From Candidatus Falkowbacteria bacterium RIFOXYC2_FULL_36_12 (GTDB lineage Bacteria > Patescibacteriota > Patescibacteriia > UBA11705), in the NCBI GenBank assembly GCA_001778235.1, contig MFGJ01000008.1, forward strand, positions 129,148 through 193,147: a DNA stretch of 64,000 nt. Direction: 5' to 3'. The translations under genes were made by a program, and so were the position numbers. The notes beneath the pieces are model-generated. The model did not search any database and was not told the DNA's origin. It saw only the letters and a list, made by a program, of their open reading frames with translations. Shown here piece by piece: positions 8,860 to 63,304 of this stretch (positions are counted from its first letter, which is position 1; each line of letters opens with the position of its first letter).

Positions 8860-8892
8860 AAAACAAAAAAGAGTCTGCTTATTAACAAACTC
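8860..8892 (-). terminator. Intrinsic terminator after orphan unit A
   Basis: Minus strand: GAGTTTG-TTAATAAG-CAGACTC followed by TTTTTTGTTTT. Confidence 0.6.
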
Positions 8893-9155
8893 TAACAACT
8901 TTTCTTCAAAACCGCCATTGTCACATTTGAATCAAGATAATAATCATGCAGATTGAAATAGTGAATTTGACCGATATTATCAACTGCTTTAATTCCAAAT
9001 TTCTTCAAATCAAATGCTCTAAATGAAATATAATCATCAAATCCAACTCCAATCACTCTCATCAATGAATCTTCAGCAATCACATTCAACCAGAAAATTT
9101 TTCCAATATAGAAAACTTCATTCAAACTCACTTCAGCATCTCTTCGTCCATCCAT
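8892..9155 (-). CDS. Hypothetical protein (orphan unit A, gene 2)
   Basis: ATG at 9155 with AGGAAGGAG SD; no recognisable motif. Confidence 0.6.
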   Translation of the reverse strand: MDGRRDAEVSLNEVFYIGKIFWLNVIAEDSLMRVIGVGFDDYISFRAFDLKKFGIKAVDNIGQIHYFNLHDYYLDSNVTMAVLKKSC

Positions 9156-9186
9156 GATTTGCTCCTTCCTCGAAGGCAAGCTTGAT

Positions 9187-10077
9187 CTACCTCAAATTAA
9201 CTTGCTCCCACCCACTATCCTTTTTTTCATACAACCGAATATAACTATCTGTCTTCTTTGTCCTCATACTCTGACGCAATAGCATCTGGGCTTGGTATAA
9301 TTCAGGGAAAACTTCTTCCTTGATTTCTAGTCGCAGGAAAAGAGCAAAGCTCTGTCCGACACTAAAATGAGTCTTTTCCACAAAAATATCTCTTGTCATA
9401 TCAAACATTTCTCTAGTTAATTCATCCATTTCTAGTCTTTCAGAAAATCCATCAAAGAACCCCACAATCAGTTGCTGAGCACGCTCTGCCAAATCAGGTT
9501 GAACCATAGTAATACTATTTACCATTGCCACGACCTTACGTTTTCCATCACTCGATTCAAATGTGATCTGCCTACGCAGTGTGCCATCATCATTCAGTAA
9601 ATGAGGATAAATATGCCGACTCAAATAATTATTTCTAGCCTCCAGAGCTTTTATCACTGCATCATTGAGTTCAAACACAATCGCGATAATTTCATCTTGA
9701 GCTTCTTGTTGCGCTTTAACCTTAGCCACCAATTCAGCCTGTCTTATTCGGAGCTCCTGTAGTCTTTCTTCTTCTTGCCGAATCTTATTTCTAGCCTCAT
9801 CTCGCTCCTTGGTTAATTCTTTGTTTAAATCAGCAAATCTCTTAAAAATATCAGCAATTCTCTTTGATTTCGATTTGAGTTTCTTTGAACCCTTTTTACG
9901 ATCTTCCAATCTTTGTTCCATTTCTCCCAAAACATCAACCGTATCCAAAGATGTGCTTACGAATTCACGAAACTTTTTAACCCAAGATTTTCTAACTTCC
10001 TCTTCCTTTTTACGCAACTTTTTCAAATTTTGTTCAACAACAGCAATCGCTTTCTTTACTTGCTTCAATGCTTCCAT
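9187..10077 (-). CDS. Hypothetical coiled-coil protein (orphan unit A, gene 1)
   Basis: ATG at 10077 after AGGAGGAAGGAA; long charged heptad-rich N-terminal half. Confidence 0.75.
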   Translation of the reverse strand: MEALKQVKKAIAVVEQNLKKLRKKEEEVRKSWVKKFREFVSTSLDTVDVLGEMEQRLEDRKKGSKKLKSKSKRIADIFKRFADLNKELTKERDEARNKIRQEEERLQELRIRQAELVAKVKAQQEAQDEIIAIVFELNDAVIKALEARNNYLSRHIYPHLLNDDGTLRRQITFESSDGKRKVVAMVNSITMVQPDLAERAQQLIVGFFDGFSERLEMDELTREMFDMTRDIFVEKTHFSVGQSFALFLRLEIKEEVFPELYQAQMLLRQSMRTKKTDSYIRLYEKKDSGWEQVNLR

Positions 10078-10095
10078 TTCCTTCCTCCTGTCTCC

Positions 10096-10146
10096 TTGGC
10101 AAAGAACATAACAAACAACTTTAACATAATAACAAAAAAATGTCAA
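10096..10146 (-). promoter_or_regulatory. Unit A promoter plus boxA-like motif
   Basis: TTGACA-N14-TGt-TAAAGT, then TGTTCTTTGCCAA (10108-10096). Confidence 0.7.
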
Positions 10147-10161
10147 TTTTGACATTTAAGA

Positions 10162-10455
10162 TTATTTCTTTTTTATTAACCGACATTTCTTAAGCCCATA
10201 ACCACACATAACACGAGTAATTTTTATATCATATGCATTCCCAGCAATTATCCTTTTAGAATGATCACCATTTACATGCATTACCTCACCGCATTGAAAC
10301 GAAATTTCAGTAACATCACACTCATCTAGATATCTAACAAAATTCACTACATCAATAATCTGTATGGTATTATAATCATCACTACAAGAAAGAACATAAT
10401 TAAAAACCAATACATCTAACAATTCAAAGAAACTTACCACTATCCCCCTAAACAT
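10162..10455 (-). CDS. Hypothetical protein (orphan unit B)
   Basis: ATG at 10455 after AAGGAGGCGAAGGGAGG; own promoter TTGACA(10521-10516)-N14-TGt-TAAATT. Confidence 0.6.
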   Translation of the reverse strand: MFRGIVVSFFELLDVLVFNYVLSCSDDYNTIQIIDVVNFVRYLDECDVTEISFQCGEVMHVNGDHSKRIIAGNAYDIKITRVMCGYGLKKCRLIKKK

Positions 10456-10529
10456 CTTTGCCTCCCTTCGCCTCCTTGACTGAATAACCTTAAATTTAAC
10501 ACTACAATCAGAACTTGTCAATACAATCC

Positions 10530-11273
10530 TTATACAATCTGTTTCCAACTATAAATCTCTTTTTCTACCAAATAATTCAGCCAATCTTTCATAAAAACAA
10601 CAATTTTGTTGAGTAAATCTTGCTTTATTACCAATTTTGGAAAAACTTTTTGATCATTAATAAAAATCAATCTCAAAAATTTAATAACATTTTCATCAAT
10701 TTTTAACTTTTCACAGTTACATTTTGAACATATCATAGAATTATCATGCCAAGAAAAATAAGCTTTTTCACCTACTTTATTATTGCACTTTACACAACTG
10801 TACAACTCTGGACTATATCCTAATAATTTCATAAGCTGGCAAGCAAAATAAATAACAATTATTTTTTTACTATTTTTATCGCTTGTTTTTTCAAGCCTTC
10901 GAATAGTATCAATTACCAATTGCCACTCCAATAAATTTTTATCCTCCAATTCTAGAGACTTTTCCAACAATTCAAATATAATATTTATATAAATAAAATC
11001 TTGCTCTAAATTTAAATCAAACTTTTCAATCAATCTTGCAGATGCCAATTTATCAAAACTATTTTTTGATCGAGCAATCATTAAATCAACCAATCCATAA
11101 CTGCTCAAATGTCCCATCAATTTACTCTTTATTTTTTTCGACCCAATTGCTACCGCCTGAATTTTACCAAAATTTTCAGTATAAAAAGAAAAAAGACTGT
11201 CATTTTCCCTCCAGTCTTTTCTATTTAAAACAAATCCAATTGTCTTATAAGTTTTATCCATATCAATAATCAA
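10530..11273 (-). CDS. recO: DNA repair protein RecO
   Basis: N-terminal OB fold (GFVL..ENDSLFSFYTENFGKIQAVAIG), LGYSPELYSCVKC and CSKC zinc motif; start may be ATG at 11261. Confidence 0.9.
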   Translation of the reverse strand: MIIDMDKTYKTIGFVLNRKDWRENDSLFSFYTENFGKIQAVAIGSKKIKSKLMGHLSSYGLVDLMIARSKNSFDKLASARLIEKFDLNLEQDFIYINIIFELLEKSLELEDKNLLEWQLVIDTIRRLEKTSDKNSKKIIVIYFACQLMKLLGYSPELYSCVKCNNKVGEKAYFSWHDNSMICSKCNCEKLKIDENVIKFLRLIFINDQKVFPKLVIKQDLLNKIVVFMKDWLNYLVEKEIYSWKQIV

Positions 11274-11276
11274 ACA

Positions 11277-11669
11277 TCAAAGTCTTTCAAAATAACTTTG
11301 TAATATTGCTGCTGCCGCAATATCATCATCACCAACCTTTTTATATCCTTTAAATTCTTTCTTCATGCTTTCAGCATATTTTGTTGACATTCTTTCATCT
11401 TCCAAATGGACTAACTTTCCAAACTGTTTAATCCAATTTAAAAACTCCTCAAAATTTTTATGTAAATTTTCTTCTCCAGCCAGCGTTTTTGGTTGCCCGA
11501 TTATTAATTCGTCAATTTTTTCATCATCTATCAATTTCTGGATACTTTTAGCCAATTCACTTAAATTTTTATAAGATAAAATCAATATCGGACTGGAAAT
11601 TTTCATTTCACTTGTACCCAGAGCAAACCCAATTTTCGATTGACCCCAATCAATACCAAGATAATTCAT
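11277..11669 (-). CDS. ruvX: Holliday junction resolvase-like / pre-16S rRNA nuclease RuvX (YqgF)
   Basis: YLGIDWGQSKIGFA, EDERMST, DDIAAAAILQSY. Confidence 0.92.
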   Translation of the reverse strand: MNYLGIDWGQSKIGFALGTSEMKISSPILILSYKNLSELAKSIQKLIDDEKIDELIIGQPKTLAGEENLHKNFEEFLNWIKQFGKLVHLEDERMSTKYAESMKKEFKGYKKVGDDDIAAAAILQSYFERL

Positions 11670-11670
11670 A

Positions 11671-13078: not shown

Positions 13079-13190
13079 AATTTATTTTAATCTACTAAAT
13101 TAATATATCAGAATAATATGGTTGAGTCAATCTTGCCTTATTTATTTATAAAATTAAAAAATCAGGTACTACACCTGACTTTTATTTATC

Positions 13191-14462: not shown

Positions 14463-14505
14463 GTGTTTTTATTTTAATCAATTTACTTTTATCCTATAAT
14501 ATTTT

Positions 14506-14985: not shown

Positions 14986-15008
14986 ATCCTATTTATTATA
15001 GCAAATAT

Positions 15009-15611: not shown

Positions 15612-15638
15612 AATTTTTATCTATCAAAATTATTTTAA

Positions 15639-16001: not shown

Positions 16002-16007
16002 ATAAAA

Positions 16008-16553: not shown

Positions 16554-16559
16554 ATTTTT

Positions 16560-16949: not shown

Positions 16950-16996
16950 ATAAATTTATCTTTGGATAATATTTTATAAATATAAATTAATCAAAT

Positions 16997-17182: not shown

Positions 17183-17209
17183 AGTATCGTCGTATTAACA
17201 TTATATTAT

Positions 17210-18860: not shown

Positions 18861-18878
18861 ATATATTTTATCAAAATA

Positions 18879-24362: not shown

Positions 24363-24707
24363 TTACATTTTAATCTCAACATCAACTCCAGCCGGAAGAT
24401 TTAAATTCGTCAAAGCATCAATTGTCTGTGGTGTTGGATTAATAATATCAATCAACCGCTTATGAATACGCATTTCATATTGATCTCGTGCATCTTTGTG
24501 AACAAAAGTTGAACGATTAACTGTATATTTCTTCTTTTCAACCGGTAATGGTACGGGTCCAGCAATAGTCGCTCCTGTTCTTTCGCTAGCATCTAAAATA
24601 GTTCTAGCAGATTGATCAATAATTTTGCTATCGTAAGCCTTGATCTTTATTCTAATTCTTTGATTAGGTACATCTACTGTTTTTTTGTCCTTTTTCCCTG
24701 CAGCCAT
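24363..24707 (-). CDS. rpsJ: 30S ribosomal protein S10 (NusE)
   Basis: [23 protein letters not shown]. Confidence 0.98.
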
Positions 24708-24719: not shown

Positions 24720-25910
24720 TTATTTAATAATCTTTGTTACAACACCAGAAGCAATAGTTCTACCACCTTCACGAACAGCAAATCTCTGTTGTTCTTCAAG
24801 AGCAATTGAATTAATCAACTTTACTTGAAAAGTAATAGTATCTCCAGGCATTACCATCTCTGTACCCTCTGGTAAAGTTACTTCACCAGTCACATCGGTT
24901 GTACCAATGTAAAACTGTGGTTTATATCCTTTGAAAAACGGTTTATGTCTGCCACCTTCTTCTTTTGTTAACACATAAACTTCTGCTTCAAATTCAATAT
25001 GTGGAGTGACTGATCCAGGAGCCGCAAGAACTTGACCTCTTTCAACATCTTCTTTCTTTAGACCTCTAAGCAAAACACCAGCATTATCACCAGCTCGTCC
25101 TTCATTCAAAGTCTTATTAAACATTTCTATACCAGTTACTACTGTTTTTTGAGTATCTCGAATACCAATTACTTCAACTTCATTATTAACTTTTACAATA
25201 CCTCTCTCTATTCTTCCTGTAACAACTGTTCCACGACCTTCAATTGAAAATACATCTTCAATTGGCATAAGGAATGGCTTATCAACATCACGAACCGGTT
25301 CTGGAACTTTCTCATCCAAGGCATCAAGTAATTCTTGAATTGGCTTACCAGCAGCTTCATCTGTAGGATTTTCTAATGCTTTTAAGGCAGAACCACGAAT
25401 TATAGGCACTTCATCGCCAGGATATTCATATTTTTTCAATAAATCACGAACTTCTTCTTCAACCAAATCAATTAATTCTGCATCATCTACCATATCAACT
25501 TTATTCAAGAAAACCACAATATATGGCACACCAACTTGTCGTGCAAGCAAAATATGTTCTCTTGTTTGTGGCATTGGTCCATCAGTTGCAGCTACAACCA
25601 AAATTGCTCCATCCATTTGAGCCGCACCAGTAATCATGTTTTTTACATAATCAGCGTGTCCAGGACAGTCAACATGAGCATAATGCCTTTTTTCAGTTTC
25701 ATATTCTACATGAGCAGTATTAATTGTGATTCCTCTAGCCTTTTCTTCTGGGGCAGAATCAATTTCTGCTACAGATTTGTGAGATGAAACACCACCTTTG
25801 GCGTTTAAATATGCCAAAATAGCAGCTGTTAAAGTTGTCTTTCCGTGGTCAACGTGACCAATTGTACCCACATTTACATGTGGCTTACTTCGTTCAAATA
25901 CCTCAGTCAT
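24720..25910 (-). CDS. tuf: Elongation factor Tu
   Basis: [25 protein letters not shown]. Confidence 0.99.
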
Positions 25911-26080
25911 TTTTTTATTCTCCTAAATGTGATCCTTAAACAATTATTTTTAAGGTTTTAGCCAATCACAATTTTACTTAATTTTAAGTTATTTTATTCT
26001 TCGATATTATAACAAAAATTTAAAATAATGCAAGCCCCAGAATAACTAATTGAGCATAACTACATTTTTGGCTTATTTTA

Positions 26081-26416
26081 CTAGTCAATTGGTTCAAGAT
26101 AATACGGTTCTTCAGACTGGTCATTTTCAGCCTTATTAGCATTTTGTTCTAATTTCTCAAGAAAAAGCTCCTCCAAATCAGAAGTTTGATCTTCACCTTG
26201 AAGACTCCAGCTTGCAATTTCTTGATTAATTTCAGACAAATCTGGCTGATTTTCAACTTCACCCCAAGTCCCACTATCTGTCGACTCTTTATGTTTCAAT
26301 AACTCGATATATTGCTCCAATTGCATTACAACAAAATTATCCCCTTTTTCGCCAACTATATATTTATCACCTGTTCTTTTTATTAGGTCTAATATTTTTT
26401 TTAAATCTGTTGGCAT
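26081..26416 (-). CDS. Hypothetical protein between fusA and tuf
   Basis: ATG after AAGGAG; N-terminus (VVMQLEQYIEL) is reminiscent of the Phd/YefM fold; acidic tail. Confidence 0.7.
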   Translation of the reverse strand: MPTDLKKILDLIKRTGDKYIVGEKGDNFVVMQLEQYIELLKHKESTDSGTWGEVENQPDLSEINQEIASWSLQGEDQTSDLEELFLEKLEQNANKAENDQSEEPYYLEPID

Positions 26417-30731: not shown

Positions 30732-30766
30732 AAAAAAATGAACATCGTTGATGTTCCTTTTTTTTT
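30732..30766. terminator. Bidirectional terminator between rpmB and orphan unit C
   Basis: A-tract, GAACATC-GTT-GATGTTC hairpin, T-tract. Confidence 0.7.
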
Positions 30767-31158
30767 CAAATTTGTTCTATAGGTATTCCTTCAAAAATCC
30801 TCTGCAGAATAACCCCAAGTGGCAAGTTATCATCATAATGATGAACAACCCGAATCAAAGCTTCATCTTGTTCAAAATCACTTTGACTCAATTCACCTTT
30901 TGCAACTCTGAAAACCCAACCAGGAAAAGGAATTACTGCTACCCAAATACTTTTTCCAGAACACTTATTCCTCCCAAAATGCAATTCAGCTATAGCTGGA
31001 GAAAATTCAAACGGTTTACCACCAATAAACATATGAAACAAATTAGCGGACCTGAATGCTTCAACCGGAACATCTGAACGAAAAATAAAATATTTTGCAA
31101 ATTTTGGAAATTCTTTATGACCATTAATAATTACATAACTTACAATTTGATCACTCAT
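30766..31158 (-). CDS. Hypothetical protein (orphan unit C, gene 2)
   Basis: ATG at 31158 after AAGGAG, overlapping the upstream stop (ATGAGTGA). Confidence 0.65.
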   Translation of the reverse strand: MSDQIVSYVIINGHKEFPKFAKYFIFRSDVPVEAFRSANLFHMFIGGKPFEFSPAIAELHFGRNKCSGKSIWVAVIPFPGWVFRVAKGELSQSDFEQDEALIRVVHHYDDNLPLGVILQRIFEGIPIEQI

Positions 31159-31567
31159 CACGCATATCTCCTTTTTCCTTCCCACAGCCATTTCTTAACC
31201 ATCGCAGATACAAATCATCAATAAAAGCAACCATTCTCTTTTCCGTATCCCTTGCGTCCTCGTTATCATCATACTTAAACTCTTCACACCACCTAAGATT
31301 CTGTAAAGTTACCCAGATATCAAAATCAAGAGAACTAAATTCACTATGTTTATCCACGACAAGAACAATCTCAAACTTATCTCCCAACCAATATTCAGTT
31401 TGCGTTTTTTGCCAATCACTTACCTGATATCGATATGAACCTTGCCTAAGGACCAAAGACTTCATTTTAAAAGCAAACACAGGAATTTTTCTAATAATAA
31501 CAAAACCTCTTGGCTTTTTTTCATTATCCAAACATCTTACAAAAATAACAACTGGTACCGTTTGCAT
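31151..31567 (-). CDS. Hypothetical protein (orphan unit C, gene 1)
   Basis: ATG after AAGGGAGA SD; no recognisable motif. Confidence 0.65.
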   Translation of the reverse strand: MQTVPVVIFVRCLDNEKKPRGFVIIRKIPVFAFKMKSLVLRQGSYRYQVSDWQKTQTEYWLGDKFEIVLVVDKHSEFSSLDFDIWVTLQNLRWCEEFKYDDNEDARDTEKRMVAFIDDLYLRWLRNGCGKEKGDMRDE

Positions 31568-31584
31568 TATTGTGTCTCCCTTCT

Positions 31585-31633
31585 TTGATCAAAGAACACA
31601 TCAATAACTTATCACAAATATTAATTTTTGCAA
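31585..31633 (-). promoter_or_regulatory. Unit C promoter plus boxA-like motif
   Basis: TTGCAA-N13-TGa-TAAGTT, then TGTTCTTTGATCAA (31598-31585). Confidence 0.6.
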
Positions 31634-39398: not shown

Positions 39399-39447
39399 TT
39401 GACAAAAACAATTATTTGTTATAATATTAAACATTGAATCTTGACAA
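39399..39447 (+). promoter_or_regulatory. Unit D promoter plus boxA-like motif
   Basis: TTGACA-N12-TGt-TATAAT (short spacer, perfect extended -10), then TGAATCTTGACAA (39435-39447). Confidence 0.6.
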
Positions 39448-39469
39448 CCTAGACAAAAAGAGAGGGGTA

Positions 39470-40015
39470 ATGAGTCAATACATTTTCATCCCAAGCTGTG
39501 AAGTTGCTCCACTCAATTCTTTGGAAAACACCCAAACATTGAAAAGATTAAAGAAGGGATTAGCTATCTGGCAAAATCATAACCGTACTATCATTGTTTC
39601 TGGTGGAATTTATTTACCACCCAATGTTCAAACAGTCCCATCAGGTCAGCTTATGAAAATTTGGTTGATTGCTAATGGTGTACCAGCTGAACAAATTATC
39701 GCTGAAACAAATTCACGAGATACTTATGAAAATATTTCAGGAGCTATGCAACTCATTTCTTCAGATACAAACCCTCAAATCACCGTTGTTTCCCAATGGC
39801 AACATTGTTTCCGAATCTTCATAACCTTTTTCCGAGCATATCATATCAGAGTTAAAACCAAACCAATGTTTTATTCAATTGGTCTCAAATCAACCCTCCT
39901 TGAATTTATAATTATATTAATTCATCTTTTTGATAAAAATGGTACGGGAAAAATCAGTAGCCGAAACCGATCTAACCGGACTTACGGGAGACAAGGAAAC
40001 AAACATGCGACCTGA
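39470..40015 (+). CDS. YdcF/DUF218 family protein (unit D, gene 1)
   Basis: IIVSGG, GVPAEQIIAETNSRDTYEN, VVSQWQHCFR; ATG at 39470 after AGAGGGG. Confidence 0.8.
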   Translation: MSQYIFIPSCEVAPLNSLENTQTLKRLKKGLAIWQNHNRTIIVSGGIYLPPNVQTVPSGQLMKIWLIANGVPAEQIIAETNSRDTYENISGAMQLISSDTNPQITVVSQWQHCFRIFITFFRAYHIRVKTKPMFYSIGLKSTLLEFIIILIHLFDKNGTGKISSRNRSNRTYGRQGNKHAT

Positions 40016-40262
40016 CCAACATCCTGATTTGGTATCAATGGGTGTGGGAAAAATCACATGCGACAAATGCATGTTGAATTTATTTCAAGGTGAACCCGAT
40101 GAAACCTGTGAAGATTGTAAATTGAATATTCTAATCCATGGAACTCCATCTGAAAAACAAGCTCATATTCGAGCATTAGTTGATGAAATTAATTCTGCAG
40201 ATACTCAAGCAGTTATTAAAAGCTACATAGATCTCATACCAACGAAACAGCAAAGGAGCTAA
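40005..40262 (+). CDS. Hypothetical protein with two CxxC motifs (unit D, gene 2)
   Basis: ATG at 40005 after GGAGACAAGGA; CDKC...CEDC. Confidence 0.65.
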   Translation: MRPDQHPDLVSMGVGKITCDKCMLNLFQGEPDETCEDCKLNILIHGTPSEKQAHIRALVDEINSADTQAVIKSYIDLIPTKQQRS

Positions 40263-40264
40263 AC

Positions 40265-40642
40265 ATGAACTACCCGATCAAACCACATCACATTTTTATT
40301 GGTTTTGAAGATTCAGAACTACATTTCCGAAATGCAGAAGAATTAGAAACTATTGGTAGTCGTGAACCAGCAATCTTTGTTGCACTATTAAAAATGGCTC
40401 AATCTCGTGATAACTGGTCTCCTTTCACCTGCGAAGATTTTCAACCATTTATTGATAATAACCGTTATGACACCCTCGCTAAAATCCGCATAGAACTTGA
40501 CTGGTTTACTTCTGATGATCTCGCCTGGCTTGGTAGAACCGAAGATGGGAAATACAGATTCACCCACGAATTCGTTTCAACCTGTTTCAAAATCAGCCCT
40601 GCACCAGATTGTATTGTCCAAAGCGAACAACAGGAGCAATAA
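40265..40642 (+). CDS. Hypothetical protein (unit D, gene 3; paralog of the next gene)
   Basis: AAGGAG SD; shares YPI, SR..F and FTH.FV.TCF..PA with 40645-41232. Confidence 0.7.
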   Translation: MNYPIKPHHIFIGFEDSELHFRNAEELETIGSREPAIFVALLKMAQSRDNWSPFTCEDFQPFIDNNRYDTLAKIRIELDWFTSDDLAWLGRTEDGKYRFTHEFVSTCFKISPAPDCIVQSEQQEQ

Positions 40643-40644
40643 TA

Positions 40645-41232
40645 ATGGACTACCCGATCACGCTTGATGATATCAATTGGGATATAGATTTCCGAGTATG
40701 CGTCCCGATGTTAGAAATACGAACAGCTCATCTTTTCAACAAACTACTAGCATTTGCCAAATCACGATATTCATTTGACAGCTTCCAAATCAAAGAATTC
40801 GCTGATTTTATCCGTGGATACCCCTTTATTCTAAGAGATTTCATAGAAGCTTCCCTTGTTGAACAAAATGAAGACGAAAGCTATTCATTCACCCACTGTT
40901 TTGTCGCGACCTGTTTCCTCGTGGCACCTGCTTGCAACCAAACCAATCACCAACCACATAGAAAAACAAACTTGCCAGACTCACTTGAACAAACCTTTGA
41001 TCTATGTCATCAACTGTTGACAGATCTTCCAGCAAATTCAGACACCAGATTAGTCCAAAGACATCTTCGCTCAATTCGAGCAATCATCCAAGATATTACC
41101 CATTGGTACTCGCAAGGAAAAGAACAACACCTGCGTGATCTCAATGCTTGGGACAGATTTATTTGTCTTGAGACAATTATCGGACAACTCGGCTCATTTT
41201 GCTCGACTCACCTTCGTAATCCAAAACAATAA
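40645..41232 (+). CDS. Hypothetical protein (unit D, gene 4)
   Basis: ATG at 40645 after AGGAG; N-terminal half is paralogous to gene 3, plus a helical C-terminal domain. Confidence 0.7.
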   Translation: MDYPITLDDINWDIDFRVCVPMLEIRTAHLFNKLLAFAKSRYSFDSFQIKEFADFIRGYPFILRDFIEASLVEQNEDESYSFTHCFVATCFLVAPACNQTNHQPHRKTNLPDSLEQTFDLCHQLLTDLPANSDTRLVQRHLRSIRAIIQDITHWYSQGKEQHLRDLNAWDRFICLETIIGQLGSFCSTHLRNPKQ

Positions 41233-43440: not shown

Positions 43441-43448
43441 CACAGAAC

Positions 43449-43474
43449 AAAAATCGACTTACCAGTCGATTTTT
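43449..43474. terminator. Bidirectional terminator between uvrB and unit E
   Basis: AAAAATCGACT-TACC-AGTCGATTTTT. Confidence 0.75.
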
Positions 43475-43530
43475 AAATAAAAAAATGACACTTTTATGTC
43501 AAATTTTGAATAATATTTCTTTATTATCTA

Positions 43531-44049
43531 TCAGTTTTCTTCAATCTGTCTCAAAGATTCTCGACGATCTTCTTCAAACTGTTTTAGTGAAAATTCACTT
43601 TGCTTATACGCACCATTGAAAACCGGTCGAATTTTCAGAGTTGGCACAGACAAACACACCAGAAAATGCCAATAAAAAGTTAAAATCTTCTGCCTTAACT
43701 CACTGACACAACTGTGTTTCCAGTTATCTTCGCCAACATCATCACCAAAAACATACCAAATCAAATCCGATTCATCCAAAGAATTTTCACCAACATATTG
43801 ATCGAGCAACTGTTCACATTGAAACCTCCAACTTTCTACTCTATCAAAGAATTCATTCACCCATGTGATAAAATCAACTGAAACTAGCTTTACTCCAGAC
43901 AGAAACGGCACCTCATCTCGAATTGCCTGCAACAGAGGACCGACCTTCCAAACTCTATAAAGAATAACTTCAAATTCCAATACTACTAACTGATCTTTTG
44001 GCAATCTTTTTAAAGACTTCACACTTTGAAGTATTGTCCAGTATTGCAT
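43531..44049 (-). CDS. Hypothetical protein (orphan unit E)
   Basis: ATG at 44049 after AAGGAG. Confidence 0.65.
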   Translation of the reverse strand: MQYWTILQSVKSLKRLPKDQLVVLEFEVILYRVWKVGPLLQAIRDEVPFLSGVKLVSVDFITWVNEFFDRVESWRFQCEQLLDQYVGENSLDESDLIWYVFGDDVGEDNWKHSCVSELRQKILTFYWHFLVCLSVPTLKIRPVFNGAYKQSEFSLKQFEEDRRESLRQIEEN

Positions 44050-44065
44050 CGTTTCTCCTTTGCGG

Positions 44066-44125
44066 GTGCCAAAGAACAATTAGCTAAACCAATAAAAGTA
44101 TACACTATTACCAAAGATTTGTCAA
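44066..44125 (-). promoter_or_regulatory. Unit E promoter plus boxA-like motif
   Basis: TTGACA-N17-TATACT, then TGTTCTTTGGCAC (44078-44066). Confidence 0.7.
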
Positions 44126-46995: not shown

Positions 46996-47050
46996 TTGAC
47001 ATTTTTATCAAAATATGCTATAATTCATTGTTAGGCCTGTACCTTCAATG
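46996..47050 (+). promoter_or_regulatory. Unit F promoter plus boxA-like motif
   Basis: Perfect TTGACA-N14-TGc-TATAAT, then TGTACCTTCAATG (47038-47050). Confidence 0.75.
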
Positions 47051-47084
47051 GTCCAATCTGGACCCGAAACGAGAGGAGACTCCC

Positions 47085-47780
47085 ATGGGAATCACCCTGC
47101 TCCAGCGCATCATCAACCCCAGAGCCAAGGGGACAGTGGATGATCCGGAAGAAATTTGGCCAGAGAAGTTCAACAACAACCCCAGAGCACTGATCGCCAT
47201 CTGGAACTTCATTCCGAAAGTCAACCATGACTGCCCGCTGTGGCAGGCGGTCATCGCCATCTTCAAGGAACTCGAAAAGTTCGACATTGAAGACAACTAC
47301 TGCCCCACCATCGAGGTCTACAACGGTCAGGACCAGAAACCCCAAGTCCTGATCATGGTGGACCGCCCTATCACCACCGGCTACATCGCCAAAACCCAGG
47401 TCTACGGTCCGGCGGATGAACTGATCGCGATCTACAACTCTCTCATCATCTTCACCATCGACATACACAGGAGTCGCTGCTGGCGTAGCCGGTCATGGAT
47501 CACTGCCTGGCTCTGCGCCCTCGGCTTCACAGAGGACGAGGCACACATGCTGGCTTCGGACAGAGATTTCCACCTGAACACCACCGCCTGCTACTTCCTC
47601 ACCCGCCTCGGCCTCCAACTCGGCCACGATGTCGAGGAATGCCTCGAACTTGCGAAGCAAATCAAACGCGAAGCCGATGTGGACGCGATCATCGAACTAC
47701 TGCTCGAAGACCGCTCACTCGGCCTCGACGACGCCGTCGCCCTGGCCTGTCCGATCCCCCGCCCGATCACCCACACCTGA
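47085..47780 (+). CDS. Hypothetical protein, GC-rich (orphan unit F)
   Basis: ATG at 47085 after GAGGAG; C/G-ending codons dominate; terminator hairpin at about 47812-47839. Confidence 0.75.
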   Translation: MGITLLQRIINPRAKGTVDDPEEIWPEKFNNNPRALIAIWNFIPKVNHDCPLWQAVIAIFKELEKFDIEDNYCPTIEVYNGQDQKPQVLIMVDRPITTGYIAKTQVYGPADELIAIYNSLIIFTIDIHRSRCWRSRSWITAWLCALGFTEDEAHMLASDRDFHLNTTACYFLTRLGLQLGHDVEECLELAKQIKREADVDAIIELLLEDRSLGLDDAVALACPIPRPITHT

Positions 47781-47931
47781 AATCCACCAACAACAAGTAA
47801 ACAACAACAACAAACCGACTCATAAAAGTGAGCGGTTTTCAGTTTAAATTTTATTCAGTTATAATATAATTATCAATTAAATTTTATCCTTATGCTAAAA
47901 ATTGACTGGACAAATAAAAATTTATTCAACA

Positions 47932-48325
47932 CCACAAACACGATAAGCCTCGGGGCTTGTCTGCCGTAATCTTGATGAAGGCAGGTCTGGGGGGATTCTT
48001 AACATCAAAAAGCACGCCATAGACTTGATCAAGGGTACCACGCAGAGCGTAATCAATCACTTAATCTCAAAAAAACTTGCTTTAACAAAACTTATCACCT
48101 ACTTTATATATTAAATTCCACAAACACGGCAAGCATCGGGTCTTGCCTGCCGTAATCTTGATGAAGGCAGGTCTGGGTGAACAAGCGCGTCATCAAAACC
48201 ACGAACTTGATCAAAACAATTCGCATTTGTTCACCCAGTGGTTTTTGCATACTTTTTGCCATCAAAAAGTATGACGCGAAGCGTAATCAATCACTTATTC
48301 TCAAAATAACTTACTTTAGCAAAAC
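47932..48325. repeat. Two imperfect direct copies of a structured non-coding element (MITE/REP-like)
   Basis: Copies at 47932-48091 and 48118-48325; identical 31-bp core CTGCCGTAATCTTGATGAAGGCAGGTCTGGG and shared GCGTAATCAATCACTTA. Confidence 0.85.
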
Positions 48326-48465
48326 AACAACTTACATTTAGATTACACTAGTGATCACTACATTCATTTGTTTCGCCTTTAAACCTATATATCAGCTGTC
48401 GCTGTTGGTTTATGTTTAAAACAAAAAAATCTTCACTTAGTTTAGCAAAGATAAATTAGTTTTGA

Positions 48466-48672
48466 TTATTCACCATTCTGCTTCGGAGCACGCCGATTGC
48501 AGGGCATCAGACGACGAGTCAAATTACTCGGCCTCTCACACTGATTTCTGAATGTCAAATCAGGGTTAAAATTTCTTGGTGTTCCATCATTCTGATCCAA
48601 AATCCTCTTATGTTCCTGAAAAACTTCATCCGAATTGAAGGTCGTAGGAAAAGGATTGAACAAGTTCGGCAT
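48466..48672 (-). CDS. Small hypothetical protein (orphan unit I)
   Basis: ATG after GGAGGG; perfect promoter TTGACA(48748-48743)-N14-TGa-TATAAT(48725-48720). Confidence 0.55.
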   Translation of the reverse strand: MPNLFNPFPTTFNSDEVFQEHKRILDQNDGTPRNFNPDLTFRNQCERPSNLTRRLMPCNRRAPKQNGE

Positions 48673-48741
48673 GATTTCCCTCCGTCTGGGTTGGTCTCGA
48701 ACAACTTGACAATAACAAGATTATATCATATTAATCATACT

Positions 48742-49998
48742 ATGTCAACAGTAAACTCAAAAATAAAACAATTACTGAAAAAACTCCCTTCTACACCCGG
48801 AATATACTTTTTTTATAATAGCCAAAAACAAATAATCTATATTGGCAAAGCCACCAACCTTCATACTCGAGTAAAAAGCTATTTTCAAGCTAAAAAAACT
48901 GATCGTCCAATTGAAACCATGATTTCTAAAATTAATAATATAAAATTCCTCCAAACCGACTCTGTGCTTGAAGCAATTATATTAGAAGCCCAACAGATAA
49001 AAAAACTGCAACCGATTTATAATGTCTTAGGCAAAGACAATAAAAGCTGGATCTATATTGTAATCACCAATCACCAATATCCACGAGTTGAAACAATCAG
49101 AGAACATGAGCTAAATCAATTATCTGAAATAACCAAGAAAAAAGTCTACAACAAAATCTTTGGTCCATTTCCAAATTTACGAACAAAAGACACCATAAGA
49201 ATTCTGCAAAAACTTTTCTCTATTTCCTTTTGTCATCCTGATCAGAAAAAAGCCTGTTTTTATCGTCAACTAAATCAATGCTTGGGAGTTTGCACCAATG
49301 AAATTTCCGACAAGGACTATAAAAGTAAAGTTATTAATCCTTTAATTCAATTTTTATCTGGAAAAAAATCTTCAGTCATTCAAAAATTGAAAAAACAAAT
49401 GTTTCAAACTTCAAAAGCTGAAAATTTCGAAGAAGCTGGTCGAATACGCAACCAAATCAATAACTTAAAACATATCCAGGATGTGACGCTAATAGATGAA
49501 AAATTTTTCCAATCATATCGTGCAGACTCCAATCAACATTTATTTAAAATTGAAGGTTATGATATTTCCAATCTAGGATCAACTGGAAAAGTTGGCAGTC
49601 TTGTTGTCTTCGATCAATCAGGTCCGATCAAATCTGAATATAAAAAATTCAAAATCAAAACTGTCAGCGGTCAAAGCGATGTTGATTGTCTAGCTGAAAT
49701 ATTTGAACGCCGATTAAAACATCAAAATTGGACTTTGCCAGATTATTTTTTGGTTGATGGTGGCAAACCACAATTAAACAAAATTAAAAAAATCCTTATT
49801 TCTAAGAACATTGATATTCCTATTATTGGAATTGCCAAGGGTCAAGAACGAAAAAAAAATGAATTCCATCTCACCACTAGAAATCAATCCATTCTCGATT
49901 TCATAAAGCAAAACAGCAAACTTTTGATCCAAGTCAGAGATGAAGCCCACAGATTTGCTATCAGCTACCAACGCAAATTAAGAAAAATAAAGAAATAA
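48742..49998 (+). CDS. uvrC: Excinuclease ABC subunit C (short; no C-terminal HhH2)
   Basis: PGIY..YIGKA GIY-YIG domain, UVR motif, IEGYDISN, VDGGKPQ, RDEAHRFA; ATG at 48742. Confidence 0.92.
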   Translation: MSTVNSKIKQLLKKLPSTPGIYFFYNSQKQIIYIGKATNLHTRVKSYFQAKKTDRPIETMISKINNIKFLQTDSVLEAIILEAQQIKKLQPIYNVLGKDNKSWIYIVITNHQYPRVETIREHELNQLSEITKKKVYNKIFGPFPNLRTKDTIRILQKLFSISFCHPDQKKACFYRQLNQCLGVCTNEISDKDYKSKVINPLIQFLSGKKSSVIQKLKKQMFQTSKAENFEEAGRIRNQINNLKHIQDVTLIDEKFFQSYRADSNQHLFKIEGYDISNLGSTGKVGSLVVFDQSGPIKSEYKKFKIKTVSGQSDVDCLAEIFERRLKHQNWTLPDYFLVDGGKPQLNKIKKILISKNIDIPIIGIAKGQERKKNEFHLTTRNQSILDFIKQNSKLLIQVRDEAHRFAISYQRKLRKIKK

Positions 49999-50008: not shown

Positions 50009-50572
50009 TTATTTCTTTTGATTTATTGGATTATGTTTTATATAAATTCTAATTTGGTCTAATGATTCATCGTTGCGAATTATGTGATCATAATATTGTT
50101 TCTGCCAAAATTGGACACCAATGGAATTATTCAATTTATTAATTTTTCGTGCGGAAAATGTTTTGAACCCGCGGATTATCTCACACAATTTGTATTTTTT
50201 ATCATAAACATTATTTGTAGGTGACGGTTTGAAACCGTCACCTACCGTTTCATCATCAATTAATTGCGGGTTCAAACCGTCACCTATCGATTCATCATCA
50301 ATCAATTGAATAATGCCATGCACATGGTCGGGCATAATAATAAATTCGTCCAAAACACAATTTTTATAATGATTTGGTAGATCATACCAACAATCTCTAA
50401 CAATTTTTCCTAATTCATTTAATAACATTTCATTATTTTCCACCGTACCTAGACAACAAAACCTGTTCTTTACACAAATTGTTATAAAATAAAAACCAGG
50501 ACTCGAATAATCCCAATTTTTTAATCTAAAAATCCCCTTATATTTCCCCCTATATAATTCCTTCTCATTCAT
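50009..50572 (-). mobile_element. REP-associated tyrosine transposase (RAYT / IS200-like Y1 HUH)
   Basis: RLKNWDYSSPGFYFITIC, MPDHVHGI (HUH), FWQKQYYDHIIR, YIKHNP. Confidence 0.88.
50217..50245. repeat. GTAG-type REP palindrome inside the RAYT gene
   Basis: GTAGGTGACGGTTT-G-AAACCGTCACCTAC; a partial second copy lies 42 bp away. Confidence 0.85.
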
Positions 50573-56853: not shown

Positions 56854-56871
56854 ACTATAAATTACAAAAAT

Positions 56872-57885: not shown

Positions 57886-57917
57886 TTTCATTCAGCTTTC
57901 CACCCAAATTTTACAAA

Positions 57918-57992
57918 AAAACTGCTTATTCACTTAAGCAGTTTTGACATTATTTCATTTTTATATTAAGATACTTTATTGTTCCTTCAATC
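57918..57992 (+). promoter_or_regulatory. nrdB terminator fused to the unit G promoter plus boxA-like motif
   Basis: Hairpin AAAACTGCTTA-TTCACT-TAAGCAGTTTT whose tail forms TTGACA(57944)-N17-TAAGAT, then TGTTCCTTCAATC (57980-57992). Confidence 0.7.
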
Positions 57993-58006
57993 ACCAGGAG
58001 GGAACC

Positions 58007-58423
58007 ATGAGTCTAAACTTCTTTGACCCAAACAGTATTACATCCTTGCATGCAGATTGCCAAAAAGCAGTTGAAGCCTTCTACCAGAAAATTTTCACAC
58101 ATATTGTTGGTCTTGACCGAAGACATTACCAGGACAATATTTATGCTTTTACCAACATTTTGTTCAAAATCTGCCTGCGAAGAAACTGTAATCTAATTTC
58201 GCTTCATAGAGGTTATAACTATAAACAAAGAAAATCTCTTGAAATATATTGCATGAAGCAAGTCAGACGAAAACTTGAATCAAAGCTTGTGACTGATGGA
58301 TATAATCTCGATGATGCTCTTCGAATTATTGCTGGAACATTCAAACTACAGATGGCTTTATATGTTCATTTTGGTCTTCAAGTAGAAGATTTTAGTCTGA
58401 TCGAAACAGGTCCAATTAATTAA
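58007..58423 (+). CDS. Hypothetical protein (orphan unit G)
   Basis: ATG at 58007 after AGGAGGG. Confidence 0.65.
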   Translation: MSLNFFDPNSITSLHADCQKAVEAFYQKIFTHIVGLDRRHYQDNIYAFTNILFKICLRRNCNLISLHRGYNYKQRKSLEIYCMKQVRRKLESKLVTDGYNLDDALRIIAGTFKLQMALYVHFGLQVEDFSLIETGPIN

Positions 58424-58432
58424 GCGTGGAAA

Positions 58433-58915
58433 CTACCGCGTTTTTTTTATTTCTGCTTGCAAGTCTTTCAACACCTGTTTAGCATGTTCAGCTGGTTTAA
58501 CCGACCTATATATTTTGAAAATTCTTCCTTTTGGGTCAATTAGGTATGACATTCTTTTTATTCCAAGAAAACTTTTACCAAACATTATTTTCTTTTGCCA
58601 AACACCATATTTTTCTAATATTTTTTTCTTTTCATCTGACAAAATAGTAAATGGTAATTTATGTTTCTCTGAAAAATTATTATGACTCTCTATACTATCA
58701 GCGCTAATCCCCAAAATCACAGCTTTTATTTTTCCAAACTCTGAATAATTATCACGAATAGAACAAGCTTCTTGAATACAACCTGGAGTATTATCTTTTG
58801 GATAAAAATAAATTAAAACCCATTGATTTTTATAATCACCCAAACGATGTTTTGCCCCCATTTGATCAGGCAGGGTAAAATCAGGTGCCACATCGCCAAT
58901 TTTTAATTCAGACAT
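58433..58915 (-). CDS. bcp: Peroxiredoxin Bcp/PrxQ
   Basis: YFYPKDNTPGCIQEAC. Confidence 0.93.
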   Translation of the reverse strand: MSELKIGDVAPDFTLPDQMGAKHRLGDYKNQWVLIYFYPKDNTPGCIQEACSIRDNYSEFGKIKAVILGISADSIESHNNFSEKHKLPFTILSDEKKKILEKYGVWQKKIMFGKSFLGIKRMSYLIDPKGRIFKIYRSVKPAEHAKQVLKDLQAEIKKTR

Positions 58916-59037
58916 ATATATAATTTATGATTTATATACTTTATCATAACCTATTTTAACAATATTTAAAACAAAAAACCGCTTGATTATGCCACTATCT
59001 CAAGCGGTTCAAATTTAGAATCTTTATATCTTCTAGC

Positions 59038-60339: not shown

Positions 60340-60418
60340 AAATTTATTATTAATTATTTTATTCTCTACTACCTGATTTTGATCCAACTATTGAGAGTAC
60401 TCCAAATAAATCATCTTC

Positions 60419-61276
60419 TTATAATTTAATATCTCTAAATTTAGGTTTATTACCATAAGGTGTCAAAAAAGTGCTGGTTAGTTCAAAAATTTGTCTTTTC
60501 TCAAACTCCGACATCAAAACAAGCAGTAATGACTTAAAATTGGACATAAATTTTTCAATCTTGAACTTATCAAAATTGAAAACACACTTATCATCAATGC
60601 ATCTCTTTTCAATCAAATTAATTTTGCTTTTAGCCTTATAATACTCCTCCAAAAGATTCTCTCTGCTTTCATCATTTAGAATCAATAAAACAAATTTCTG
60701 CAAAACTTCATCCTTGTTAAAATCATGCCACAATCCTGATAATTTTGCGAGTTGAATATCCACAAGTTCTTTCGTCAACAGCTCAATTTTTTGTCTCTCA
60801 TTATCAAAATCAACCAATAATCTATACATCGTCAAATAATATTCAAGCACATACATCATTCCTTCTGTCTTAAACAAACGATGATCATATTCATTTTGAT
60901 CCGACTCGGTTTTCTGTTGCTTCAAATATTCTCGCTTTGATTTCATTGAATCAAAAACCAACGCTCGATCATAAAATCCGTTCACTGCCTGATGGAAATC
61001 TTTTACTTTTGGTTCACTCGCTTTATGCTTCAAAACAAATCTGCTGATAAATTGTAACAACTTTGCTATTTTCAATTCATCAAAATCCTTACCTTGCAAC
61101 AACTCAATCAATTCCAGCAAATTTGATTTTGTTTCACCTTCTTGAGGTAAACCATCTGTAATAATTCTAACCGCATCTATCGCTTCATCAATAATTACTT
61201 TATTTGTTTCATCAAATAATATTAATGGCTTTTCCTCTCCAATTTTCGCTAAAGCAATTAGCTTGTCTATTTTCAT
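60419..61276 (-). CDS. Hypothetical helical protein
   Basis: 285-aa ORF with host-like composition; no motif recognised. Confidence 0.7.
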   Translation of the reverse strand: MKIDKLIALAKIGEEKPLILFDETNKVIIDEAIDAVRIITDGLPQEGETKSNLLELIELLQGKDFDELKIAKLLQFISRFVLKHKASEPKVKDFHQAVNGFYDRALVFDSMKSKREYLKQQKTESDQNEYDHRLFKTEGMMYVLEYYLTMYRLLVDFDNERQKIELLTKELVDIQLAKLSGLWHDFNKDEVLQKFVLLILNDESRENLLEEYYKAKSKINLIEKRCIDDKCVFNFDKFKIEKFMSNFKSLLLVLMSEFEKRQIFELTSTFLTPYGNKPKFRDIKL

Positions 61277-61374
61277 AAAAATCTAATATTAATTATTATA
61301 TCAAATTTTAGACTAATTTACCAAAACAAAAAACCGAAGCAAATTTATACTTCGGAATTCTTTTAATAATTTTT

Positions 61375-63201
61375 TTAATTCCTATTACGATACTTATTCA
61401 TTTCTCCACTTCGACTCAAATGCTCTTGTGCCAAGGCAAAAACCTCTTCAGGCGTAATCCCAAAATCACCATTGATATAAATCACAAAATCATTCTGATG
61501 GATAAAGACCTCTTCTTCAAGTGGCTCTCTACCAATCACTTTTGCTACCATTTCACGAAGCACTTCAACCAACCTTCTCATCCCTGACACATGACCACAT
61601 TCATTGGTAATAGTGATACCAATTGTTGGCCGTTCAGGATTTGAGGAGATAAACACATCCCAATGCTTTTTCCACTGGTTAACATAACCACGAAGTCTTT
61701 GAGATTCATTGCTATCAGACCCAATCAGAGCAAACATCAAACCATCTTTTTCAACTTCTTCAGCATCATCAGTCAGATACTGAAAACCTTTATTAATGGA
61801 CAATGCCGAGAAAAACCCTTCAATCAAAACATAACCAATCTTCACAATCTGAACCGCTCTCATAAATTTCGGCATGTTTTCAATTGCCATAATAAAATGA
61901 TACGGTGCCAGATGATTCCACTCAAATCTGATGACCTCTCCAATCTGATCACAAACATCCTGATAATGAGCTTCCAAAGCCTCACACACACTCTCAACCA
62001 CCGCAAATCTTCTCACTCCACCATAAATATGATTCACCATCATCAGCATATTCTGCATCTTGGCTCGAGTCATTTCCGGCAAATAAAAATATTGATAAAT
62101 ACATTCAGTCAATGTCCAAAACGGGAAATCATTTGCATTCTGATCAAAAACCAAATGTTCAGCGCTGAAATATCCACCAGTACCCAGATGAATAACCAAA
62201 TCATCTTGCTCTGGCAAAAATTCCTTGTCATAATCCCAAATTGTTTTTCCACCAGATACTTCTATTACCGTTACACTTTCACGATCAAGAGGATTCAAAT
62301 GCATAATTCTGCAGATAAAAGCAAACGCCGAGGCAACATCTCCATCAATCTTATCAGGAACAATGATATAGGTATGTAGCACTTGCATCATTTGTCCAAT
62401 TGGCAATCTCTGATTAATGCTCATTCTTGAAGGATATGCTTCATCAACCCGATCATTGATAGCCATCAATGGTTCGAGCTTCAGGAATTGAATCATATTC
62501 TCGTTTTCATATTCCTGACAAACCGGATCTTCCACTACCACTTCTCTCAAGTCAGCCAGCCGATCTCTTGTGTTAATTTTTTCATAATTATCAATATACC
62601 CTTGCAAAACCGACAAACCCACAATCATCTTAAAATAATCACTAGTGCCTTCAGGCAACTGGCGGATAACTTTTTCCAAATATTCAATCCCGAATTGCGC
62701 TGGGACAAAACGACCAGTACCATTTGTCAAACGCTTTGCCACACGACCAAGCTGTTTGACCAATTCATAATTTTCACCAGTCATTCTACCAATCTTACTA
62801 TCCACCAAATTAACATAATCTCTGATTTCAATGATATGCGGTGGGATATAACTCCGATGAGAATAAAAAACTTCAACCATTGCATGAGTTGCAGAATGTA
62901 CAGGACAACCAACAAAATGATGATCAAAAAATCCATTTTCTGGATCAAGTCTTCGACCAGTATCACAATGAATCACAATTCTGCCATTACTTTCACCATC
63001 ATAGGTCATTCCATGTGAAACAAACATATAAGTCACTCTATCACTTCTGATATCAACCTCATTGGCTTCACAAAAAACCTGTACCGGTGCAACACAATCA
63101 CGATCAATATCAACATGTACTACAAAAAGAAAGTTAGCATCAAATGGGTATGAAATCCTAATCCTACGAAGTTCTTCGAGTGTCATAATATTGCCGGACA
63201 T
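61375..63201 (-). CDS. MYG1/DHH-like phosphoesterase with a duplicated catalytic-type domain (orphan unit H)
   Basis: HVDIDRD, HCDTG..DP..FFDHH; second copy PDKIDGD, HLGTGG..FDQN; C-terminal FIHQNDF. Confidence 0.6.
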   Translation of the reverse strand: MSGNIMTLEELRRIRISYPFDANFLFVVHVDIDRDCVAPVQVFCEANEVDIRSDRVTYMFVSHGMTYDGESNGRIVIHCDTGRRLDPENGFFDHHFVGCPVHSATHAMVEVFYSHRSYIPPHIIEIRDYVNLVDSKIGRMTGENYELVKQLGRVAKRLTNGTGRFVPAQFGIEYLEKVIRQLPEGTSDYFKMIVGLSVLQGYIDNYEKINTRDRLADLREVVVEDPVCQEYENENMIQFLKLEPLMAINDRVDEAYPSRMSINQRLPIGQMMQVLHTYIIVPDKIDGDVASAFAFICRIMHLNPLDRESVTVIEVSGGKTIWDYDKEFLPEQDDLVIHLGTGGYFSAEHLVFDQNANDFPFWTLTECIYQYFYLPEMTRAKMQNMLMMVNHIYGGVRRFAVVESVCEALEAHYQDVCDQIGEVIRFEWNHLAPYHFIMAIENMPKFMRAVQIVKIGYVLIEGFFSALSINKGFQYLTDDAEEVEKDGLMFALIGSDSNESQRLRGYVNQWKKHWDVFISSNPERPTIGITITNECGHVSGMRRLVEVLREMVAKVIGREPLEEEVFIHQNDFVIYINGDFGITPEEVFALAQEHLSRSGEMNKYRNRN

Positions 63202-63250
63202 CTTTCACCCTCTTTCCTCCATCTGCTGTTTGCAGTTTTCCCAACCTAGA

Positions 63251-63304
63251 TTTTCAAGGTTCTTTCTAACAACCAATTTTAACACAAGAAACAAAAAATG
63301 TCAA
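63251..63304 (-). promoter_or_regulatory. Unit H promoter plus boxA-like motif
   Basis: TTGACA-N14-TGt-TAAAAT, then AGAACCTTGAAAA (63263-63251); SD GGAGGAAAGAGGGTG. Confidence 0.7.

Follow-up and report, generated by a model that had tools for sequence, protein, structure and literature searches.

Lineage-specific genes behind a shared leader of sigma70 promoter, boxA-like motif and Shine-Dalgarno sequence in a Candidatus Falkowbacteria genome

The window examined here is the whole stretch of 64,000 nucleotides (nt) analysed from contig MFGJ01000008.1 of Candidatus Falkowbacteria bacterium RIFOXYC2_FULL_36_12 (phylum Patescibacteriota), and our subject is a set of nine small gene units, A to I, encoded between its housekeeping genes. 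A first-pass annotation of the sequence had proposed that these units share a leader composed of a strong sigma70 promoter, a motif resembling the boxA element of ribosomal RNA (rrn) leaders and a strong Shine-Dalgarno (SD) sequence, and that they usually end in a terminator of their own. The genome holding the window measures 1.09 Mb, has a GC content of 35% and is 99.8% complete. It carries one 16S and one 23S rRNA gene, which are unlinked, and the 3' end of the 16S rRNA is GGACCACCTCCTTT, with an intact anti-SD. We refer to this genome as G000 where it has to be told apart from its relatives, among them G001, which belongs to the same family and another genus.

Nine units between housekeeping genes

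Unit A is encoded on the reverse strand. Its promoter (10118..10146; TTGACA-17-TAAAGT with TG) has a -35 box that overlaps the weak terminator hairpin of unit B, and 9 nt after the -10 box lies the boxA-like site TGTTCTTTGCCA (10097..10108). Two genes follow, one for a protein of 296 amino acids (9187..10077) that is syntenic in G001 and one, SD-led and without a family, for 87 amino acids (8892..9155), and the unit closes with an intrinsic terminator (8870..8893). The larger protein has 12 homologues at 33-49% identity; its N-terminal half reads from sequence as coiled-coil-like, and its C-terminal half is weakly similar to phrog_846/DUF3164 (PHROG E-value 7e-8). No genomic loci were confirmed for protein A, and the Atlas is blank for it. 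Unit B (10162..10521, reverse strand) has its -35 box at 10521, a strong SD and an open reading frame (ORF) of 97 amino acids at 10162-10455. Unit C (30732..31633, reverse strand) has a TTGCAA promoter (-35 at 31633), a boxA-like site at 31587-31598, ORFs at 31151-31567 and 30766-31158, and a weak terminator at 30732-30764.

Unit D (39399..41232, forward strand) starts with its -35 box at 39399 and an rrn-type boxA-like site at 39435-39446, followed by four SD-led ORFs at 39470-40015 (DUF218), 40005-40262, 40265-40642 and 40645-41232. Unit E, between uvrB and uvrA (43448..44125, reverse strand; -35 at 44125), carries a boxA-like site at 44067-44078, an ORF of 172 amino acids at 43531-44049 and a terminator at 43448-43475. 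Unit F, between uvrA and uvrC (46996..47837, forward strand), has a perfect promoter (-35 at 46996), a boxA-like site at 47038-47049, a foreign-looking ORF of 231 amino acids with 57% GC at 47085-47780, and a terminator at 47813-47837. Unit I (48429..48748, reverse strand) likewise has a perfect promoter (-35 at 48748) and a strong SD; its ORF of 68 amino acids (48466-48672) overlaps the longest uvrC frame. Unit G, after nrdB (57944..58443, forward strand; -35 at 57944), consists of a boxA-like site at 57980-57991, an ORF of 138 amino acids at 58007-58423 and a terminator at 58422-58443. Unit H (61329..63304, reverse strand; -35 at 63304) has an rrn-type boxA-like site at 63252-63263, an ORF of 608 amino acids at 61375-63201 and a terminator at 61329-61360. 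Its protein is internally duplicated, has a syntenic homologue in G001 and one other homologue in the protein database, and a MYG1/DHH-like match is to be taken as a lead only.

All nine motif strings of the first-pass annotation were found again on the coding strand where it had placed them. Seven of the nine units have a TG ahead of the -10 box (D only under a 15-nt spacer reading), E and G being those that lack it, and every unit has a strong SD, which pairs with the genome's own 16S tail at -8.5 to -11.6 kcal/mol compared with a core-gene median of -1.1 kcal/mol. Other parts of that description stand in part. We scored the motif with two models that had no training on G000, one derived from G001 leaders and one from the 16S leaders of 19 relatives. 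At least one model places units A (which passes both, at 13.6 and 11.7 bits), C, D, E, G and H above the best of 53 core-promoter leaders; F, at 6.6 against a core maximum of 6.8 and a core 95th percentile of 3.9, is borderline, and boxA is unsupported in B and I. Terminators, claimed for all units except I, are clear in A, E, F, G and H (-8.8 to -12.6) and weak in C (-8.0), B (-6.9) and I (-6.7), and a terminator scan found none for D. The term orphan suits 13 of the 14 unit ORFs in that they have no Pfam family, the exception being the first gene of D; it does not suit A and H, which are syntenic in the other genus (36% and 22% identity, respectively) with the same leader layout.

Unit leaders across the genome and its relatives

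For genome-wide counts, a unit was defined as an ATG start with an SD and a strong sigma70 promoter no more than 120 nt upstream. Genes without a BLASTP homologue in G001 were called lineage-specific and all others conserved. Gene calls and the SD rule were home-made, so that some genes are given a false start, such as an internal TTG, and G001 genes split by the ends of 20-kb stretches are missing from the counts. A consensus sigma70 promoter together with a GGAG(G) SD precedes 95 genes of the genome, 93 of which are lineage-specific or less than 45% identical. An SD match of at least five bases was found for 133 of 381 genes without a G001 homologue versus 55 of 642 genes with one; about 190 genes carry such a match, some of them being false starts. 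A Pfam scan of part of the genome, covering 89 SD-led genes, found nearly all of those with a strong promoter of their own to be familyless.

The leader grammar of promoter, motif and SD recognized in the window proved to be shared genome-wide and non-random. The motif occurs in 26 of 93 unit leaders; dinucleotide shuffling yields 3.6 (maximum 7 in 40), and none of 53 core-promoter leaders has it. Models were cross-trained, each on the unit leaders of one genome and applied to the other, and in G001 the motif was present in 30 of 88 unit leaders versus 3.4 after shuffling and one of 42 core-promoter leaders. A re-count made without regard to the SD gave 31 of 107 promoter-bearing leaders with a ribosome-binding site versus 3 of 75 without one in G000, 66 of 119 versus 4 of 71 in G001, and 15 of 54 versus 1 of 21 in a 370-kb sample of a further relative, G014; in a 316-kb sample of another, G007, the counts were only 2 of 16 versus 1 of 19. 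The motif, which is strong in only about 30% of units, is a frequent part of the class and not a defining one, the class being defined by the units' own promoter and SD.

The core of the motif, written as a regular expression, matched 24 times in the sense and 3 times in the antisense orientation among the 93 leaders, and 3 times upstream of the -35 box; this expression was written after the nusB leaders discussed below had been seen, and we rely on the matrix score. The unit motif lies a median of 10.5 nt after the -10 box, and from its end to the SD the median distance is 10 nt in G000 and 4 nt in G001. Strict matches to promoter plus motif, a pattern derived from G000 and G001, number 22 in G000 (an in-sample count) versus one antisense, and 107 versus 26 antisense in 60 other genomes of the phylum. 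A DNA-binding repressor with a palindromic site, considered as a reader of the motif, is unlikely given its strand specificity.

The first-pass annotation had also regarded the units as foreign, moron-like captures, which as a general claim did not hold up. Units share the host's replication-strand skew no less strongly than core genes do (0.172/-0.016 at fourfold sites versus 0.092/-0.066 in core genes), A and H are syntenic, and there is no long shared cassette. The recent insertion or repeated phage cassette expected of morons and of the PeSL cassettes of phages was not seen, the units being chromosomal and ameliorated, with leaders mostly unalike. Unit F, which with three other units has a GC content of 55-57%, is a foreign-looking exception. 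Judging from their sequences, unit genes are probably long-resident and not fresh morons: the layout is moron-like and the history mostly is not. The corresponding intervals of G001 (uvrB-uvrA, uvrA-uvrC, after nrdB and near rpsL) hold other SD-led units, and 10 of 43 unit-bearing syntenic intervals are also unit-bearing there, versus 21 of 333 other intervals. A single mobile leader cassette was considered and rejected: the leaders of the 93 units form 16 weak pairs, and the perfect matches, two in number, are divergent genes that share one intergenic region.

The class appears to include an enzyme. A gene of the carbamoyltransferase family (538 amino acids; G000:C1:69680-71296) has all three leader elements, promoter, boxA-like site and SD, in G000 as well as in G001, the two proteins being 47% identical, and the gene occurs in three of four other genomes of the family. 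In genomes of the variant-tail family a carbamoyltransferase-like unit was found in none of 16. At another locus (L116:9291-9887 and 9962-10186), two adjacent SD-led genes encode stand-alone ClpX C4 zinc-finger domains, and such proteins could act on ClpXP.

The boxA-like motif and the Shine-Dalgarno side

The unit motif resembles boxA on three lines, namely the 16S leader, the E. coli consensus and sites at nusB. An unseeded expectation-maximization (EM) search returned TGTTCTTTAACA in G001 and ATTGTTCCTTGA in G000, with log-likelihoods of 165 and 139, respectively, compared with at most 51 in shuffles, and the G001 motif is one base off the E. coli boxA UGCUCUUUAACA as printed in PMC13753749. 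The genome's own rrn boxA matches as well: the 16S leader reads TTGACA-17-TATAAT-10 nt-TGAACTTTGACA, the unit motif occupies a like position, and in 12 of 21 16S leaders the best site lies 10-13 nt after the -10 box. A model built from rrn sites alone (the 16S leaders of 19 relatives) found sites in 17 of 72 unit leaders versus 3.8 after shuffling, and in 5 of 46 core leaders versus 3.1. The rrn sites prefer GAAC and the unit sites GTTC.

Of 28 readable nusB loci (out of 30; loci of kin are non-independent), 16 have a boxA-like core scoring at least 6 bits in the 30 bases that precede the start codon, compared with 8 of 398 and 13 of 382 core genes. These sites, sometimes doubled, occur across the order (L002, L125-L153; in G000 the nusB start is at C1:141946). 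Because the core sits at the nusB start codon in relatives, we read it as nusB self-repression, and self-regulation of nusB is likely in Patescibacteria. Nus genes are known to carry boxA often, with 0-7 sites per gammaproteobacterial genome (10.1101/091223).

NusB, S10, NusA and NusG are all encoded in the genome, and nusB is present in 198 of 201 genomes of the phylum. The gene for S10 (NusE), the partner of NusB, is the SD-less rpsJ of the window (24363..24707, reverse strand), with no boxA seen in its leader. Antitermination directed against the cell's own Rho had to be abandoned: rho was not found in the 99.8% complete genome or in any of four genomes of its class, and the motif therefore does not serve as protection from the cell's own Rho. 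In a rho-bearing genome, G095, a promoter plus boxA-like match (C24:12852-12896) lies about 500 bases upstream of a hit to the Rho RNA-binding domain on the same strand.

Core genes are mostly SD-less, with tuf (24720..25910, reverse strand; conserved GGAG-type SD) as an exception, just as the first reading of the window had it. The SD of rpsU (C7:286131-286286, L163; comparison loci L154-L183) pairs at -4 kcal/mol or better in 28 of 30 loci, with a median of -10.6. It also follows changes in the 16S tail. In family f2, ACUCC replaces CCUCC in each of the eight genomes whose tail is readable, and GGAGT is found in seven of eight rpsU leaders of this family; family f4 has UCUCC. Among nine testable pairs, the rpsU SD pairs better with the genome's own variant tail in five, and equally well in the four in which that tail is canonical. 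Of 41 genomes searched, 37 have the protein bS21. In Bacteroidia, bS21 is reported to hide the anti-SD, so that bS21-less ribosomes read SDs, including that of rpsU (PMC9976891), and rpsU autoregulation is also reported in PMC13000453. The signature of that system, consisting of SD-less core genes, an intact anti-SD and a strong SD on rpsU that changes together with the 16S tail, is present here, and from it we infer a Bacteroidia-like SD state. In parts of Parcubacteria the anti-SD has been lost and bS21 is often absent (PMC9297842, the consulted portion of which does not describe the present gene class).

Several neighboring features were observed along the way. The tuf leader (window 25911-25975; L253-L282) contains CTGG, an AAAACC-like word, a variable hairpin, GTCGC or GCCGC, and GGAGA in most relatives, and looks like a structured regulatory RNA. 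Between fusA and tuf lies an SD-led gene for 111 amino acids without a Pfam family (26081-26416), whose syntenic homologue in G001 (33% identity) has no SD. We rejected rpoB as an SD unit, the purine run before it being the arm of a hairpin that precedes a T-run; this conserved hairpin and T-run reach up to the rpoB start codon (G000:C1:54106-54150; L224-L252) and are terminator- or attenuator-like. Elsewhere in the window, a dispersed hairpin-rich repeat of two tandem units of about 170 nt lies between units F and I (47928-48430), with copies at 71-98% identity on contigs C1, C6, C7 and C8; an IS200-like Y1 transposase is encoded at 50009-50572; and a tRNA-Ile (TAT anticodon) adjoins tRNA-Val(GAC) at 8349-8503.

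Readings of the leader and known systems

The question addressed is how the many familyless genes of regulator-poor Patescibacteria are controlled. We propose, with a probability of roughly one half, that the units form a self-contained accessory regulon which NusB-S10 represses and SD-competent ribosomes read. Two RNA-level signals on the unit class would then report the status of ribosomes within a cell of the candidate phyla radiation (CPR). By analogy with suhB of E. coli, whose translation is repressed by a boxA lying 6 nt from the SD (10.1101/091223), the cell's own NusB-S10 would bind the site on nascent RNA and lower translation; by analogy with Bacteroidia, ribosomes with a free anti-SD would favor SD-led messages. 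A shortage of S10 and bS21 relative to new rRNA, as in a growth burst on a host, would switch the units on, and they would otherwise be off, which would give the cell one global switch. Unit genes may turn over at preferred intergenic sites, accompanied by local duplication of leader-plus-gene units, while their shared leader signals would be kept by selection and not as one mobile cassette.

A number of results weigh against this proposal. The strict motif threshold is passed by only about 30% of units, the EM estimate reaching up to 67-75%. The nusB site of G000 itself scores 1.5 bits on the unit model, only the rrn-type variant matching; the 23S leader site is weak (6.5 bits), and a score of 7 bits is not attained at any of 14 tRNA promoters. 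Repression at suhB required the whole Nus complex, which in E. coli includes SuhB (10.1101/091223), and suhB was not found in the 99.8% complete genome. The tuf SD is kept in 26 of 29 readable loci even though ordinary ribosomes must read tuf, so that blindness to SDs is not absolute. Finally, unit SDs in relatives with changed 16S tails do not follow the tail, an outcome that our proposal fails to predict: GGAGG is found in 34 of 46 units and GGAGT in one in G014 (tail ACAACUCC), where G follows GGAG in only 352 of 1840 background cases, and in 13 of 14 units in G007 (tail CUAUCUCC). In G014, 37 of 50 unit SDs pair better with the canonical tail and one of 50 with its own. The mismatch could be explained by tolerated mispairing, by old donor signals or by reading on host ribosomes; since its own tail has the canonical core, G000 cannot decide the matter.

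Reading on host ribosomes belongs to a wider scenario, which we consider quite improbable, in which units are written for host machinery: after transfer of DNA or mRNA, host RNA polymerase, NusB-S10 and ribosomes would read the leader, boxA would shield the message from host Rho, the core SD-less genes would be silent there, and the products would manipulate the host. Such delivery of genes from CPR to a prokaryotic host, with the leader as a tag of CPR effector genes on about a tenth of all genes, deserves the same low credence. It would account for unit SDs that stay GGAGG in lineages whose 16S tail no longer has CCUCC, even though the rpsU SD has changed there along with the tail. In G014 recent import is no explanation of this, given that the units carry the genome's strand skew (0.181/-0.033) though they are GC-richer (0.42 vs 0.36), and csrA is absent from all five genomes searched, so GGA-binding CsrA, considered as an alternative reader of GGAGG, is not the reader. 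Where rho is missing the strict pattern is enriched (97 matches against 20 antisense in 44 genomes), and where rho is present it hardly is (10 against 6 in 16 genomes), a comparison confounded by lineage, and units lack the leading-strand bias of core genes (48:45 vs 302:133). Against this stand the assumed nature of the transfer and the presence of the motif in the cell's own nusB and 16S leaders, which makes a host unneeded to explain boxA. The mismatch comes from relatives alone, and recent acquisition explains the SDs of G007, where the units (n=15) appear to be newcomers, having no skew and a GC content of 0.52 compared with 0.41. In Erythrobacter litoralis the anti-SD is reported to have changed without a change in mRNAs (PMC10783764), and the base after AGGTG shows no clear preference for the canonical tail (A in 4 and G in 1 of 9 cases in G000; A in 8 and G in 6 of 19 in G001).

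The site is tied to the promoter and not to the SD, as in the 16S leader, and in most G000 leaders longer than 55 nt with a scoring site, this site still lies 6-18 nt after the -10 box. This would suit a site that recruits an rrn-type Nus complex to aid transcription, by less pausing, read-through of weak terminators or protection of the 5' end, the units then being strongly expressed accessory genes. The rrn complex is reported to shift NusA off the exit tunnel, and in B. subtilis NusB binds its own boxA even though Rho is dispensable (PMC13753749). We nevertheless regard transcriptional help as unlikely. Most units consist of one short gene and end in a terminator of their own (22 of the 60 units sampled, compared with 9 of 60 core genes), and they have little need of processivity; the site at the nusB start codon suits repression better, and the lack of a detectable suhB counts here too. 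It is improbable as well that the units have no common regulation, having been acquired from phages or hosts with donor promoter, SD and boxA that were kept as baggage and locally duplicated. The GC-rich units of G000 and G007, the weak phage-family similarity of unit A, tandem units with near-identical leaders in G001 and canonical SDs whatever the genome's own tail fit a donor origin. Yet most units are ameliorated, and orthologues at 21-47% identity across genera keep promoter and SD, several also the motif. An origin of the leader from phage early genes was specifically rejected, the strict pattern showing no enrichment in viral contigs (12 vs 8 antisense stretches) and 3 of 55 unit proteins having PHROG hits. 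That the motif is a chance outcome of T-rich transcript starts is highly improbable: it is degenerate and T-rich, and B and I are without it, but it exceeds shuffles across genomes, is absent from core promoters, is specific in strand and position, and recurs at nusB.

A rule of boxA plus SD picks out about 90 familyless or fast-evolving genes per genome. If NusB-S10 and bS21 are indeed the two switches, Nus-factor control of mRNAs would grow from a handful to dozens of genes in a Rho-less cell, and rpsU regulation of the Bacteroidia type would reach a second phylum. Whether the messages are read by CPR or by host is a question on which the failure of unit SDs to match variant anti-SDs bears. 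Messenger RNA boxA, rpsU autoregulation and promoter-SD-terminator cassettes are already known as parts. No description of the three joined together on dozens of lineage-specific genes of Rho-less, SD-poor Patescibacteria was found in the literature searched, which left subscription journals largely outside and did not include supplements.

Among known systems, the boxA sites in mRNAs (suhB of E. coli and Salmonella, a parE-like gene of Citrobacter koseri; 10.1101/091223) share with the units a boxA-like core a few nt upstream of the SD, and in both cases a Nus gene itself carries the site, suhB there and nusB here. They differ in number, 0-7 per gammaproteobacterial genome as reported there compared with about 30 strict and perhaps 60-70 loose sites here, and in that here neither Rho nor SuhB was found, the targets are lineage-specific, the genome is mostly SD-less and the site is degenerate and lies at the 5' end. 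The boxA of rRNA leaders (E. coli, as above; B. subtilis AUGAUCUUUGAAA, PMC13753749) belongs to the same sequence class, at a promoter distance like that of the genome's own 16S, and its factors NusB, S10, NusA and NusG are shared; here, however, the messages are short and protein-coding, with their own terminators and no Rho to oppose. Bacteroidia such as Flavobacterium johnsoniae (PMC9976891, PMC13000453) share the SD-poor core genes, the intact anti-SD and an extended rpsU SD that covaries with the tail, whereas Flavobacteriales are described as having about one strong-SD gene, compared with the roughly 190 SD matches here.

Cassettes built around orphan genes offer the nearest likeness in layout. 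In lambdoid morons a terminator, a promoter and an SD bracket orphan genes between core genes. The PeSL cassettes of T4-like phages share the terminator, consensus sigma70 promoter and SD around orphan genes, inserted at variable sites between core genes (PMC4122927), and differ from the present units in that these lie on a cellular chromosome, have a boxA (a word that does not occur in PMC4122927), have leaders that are not near-identical repeats, and contain genes most of which are long-resident.

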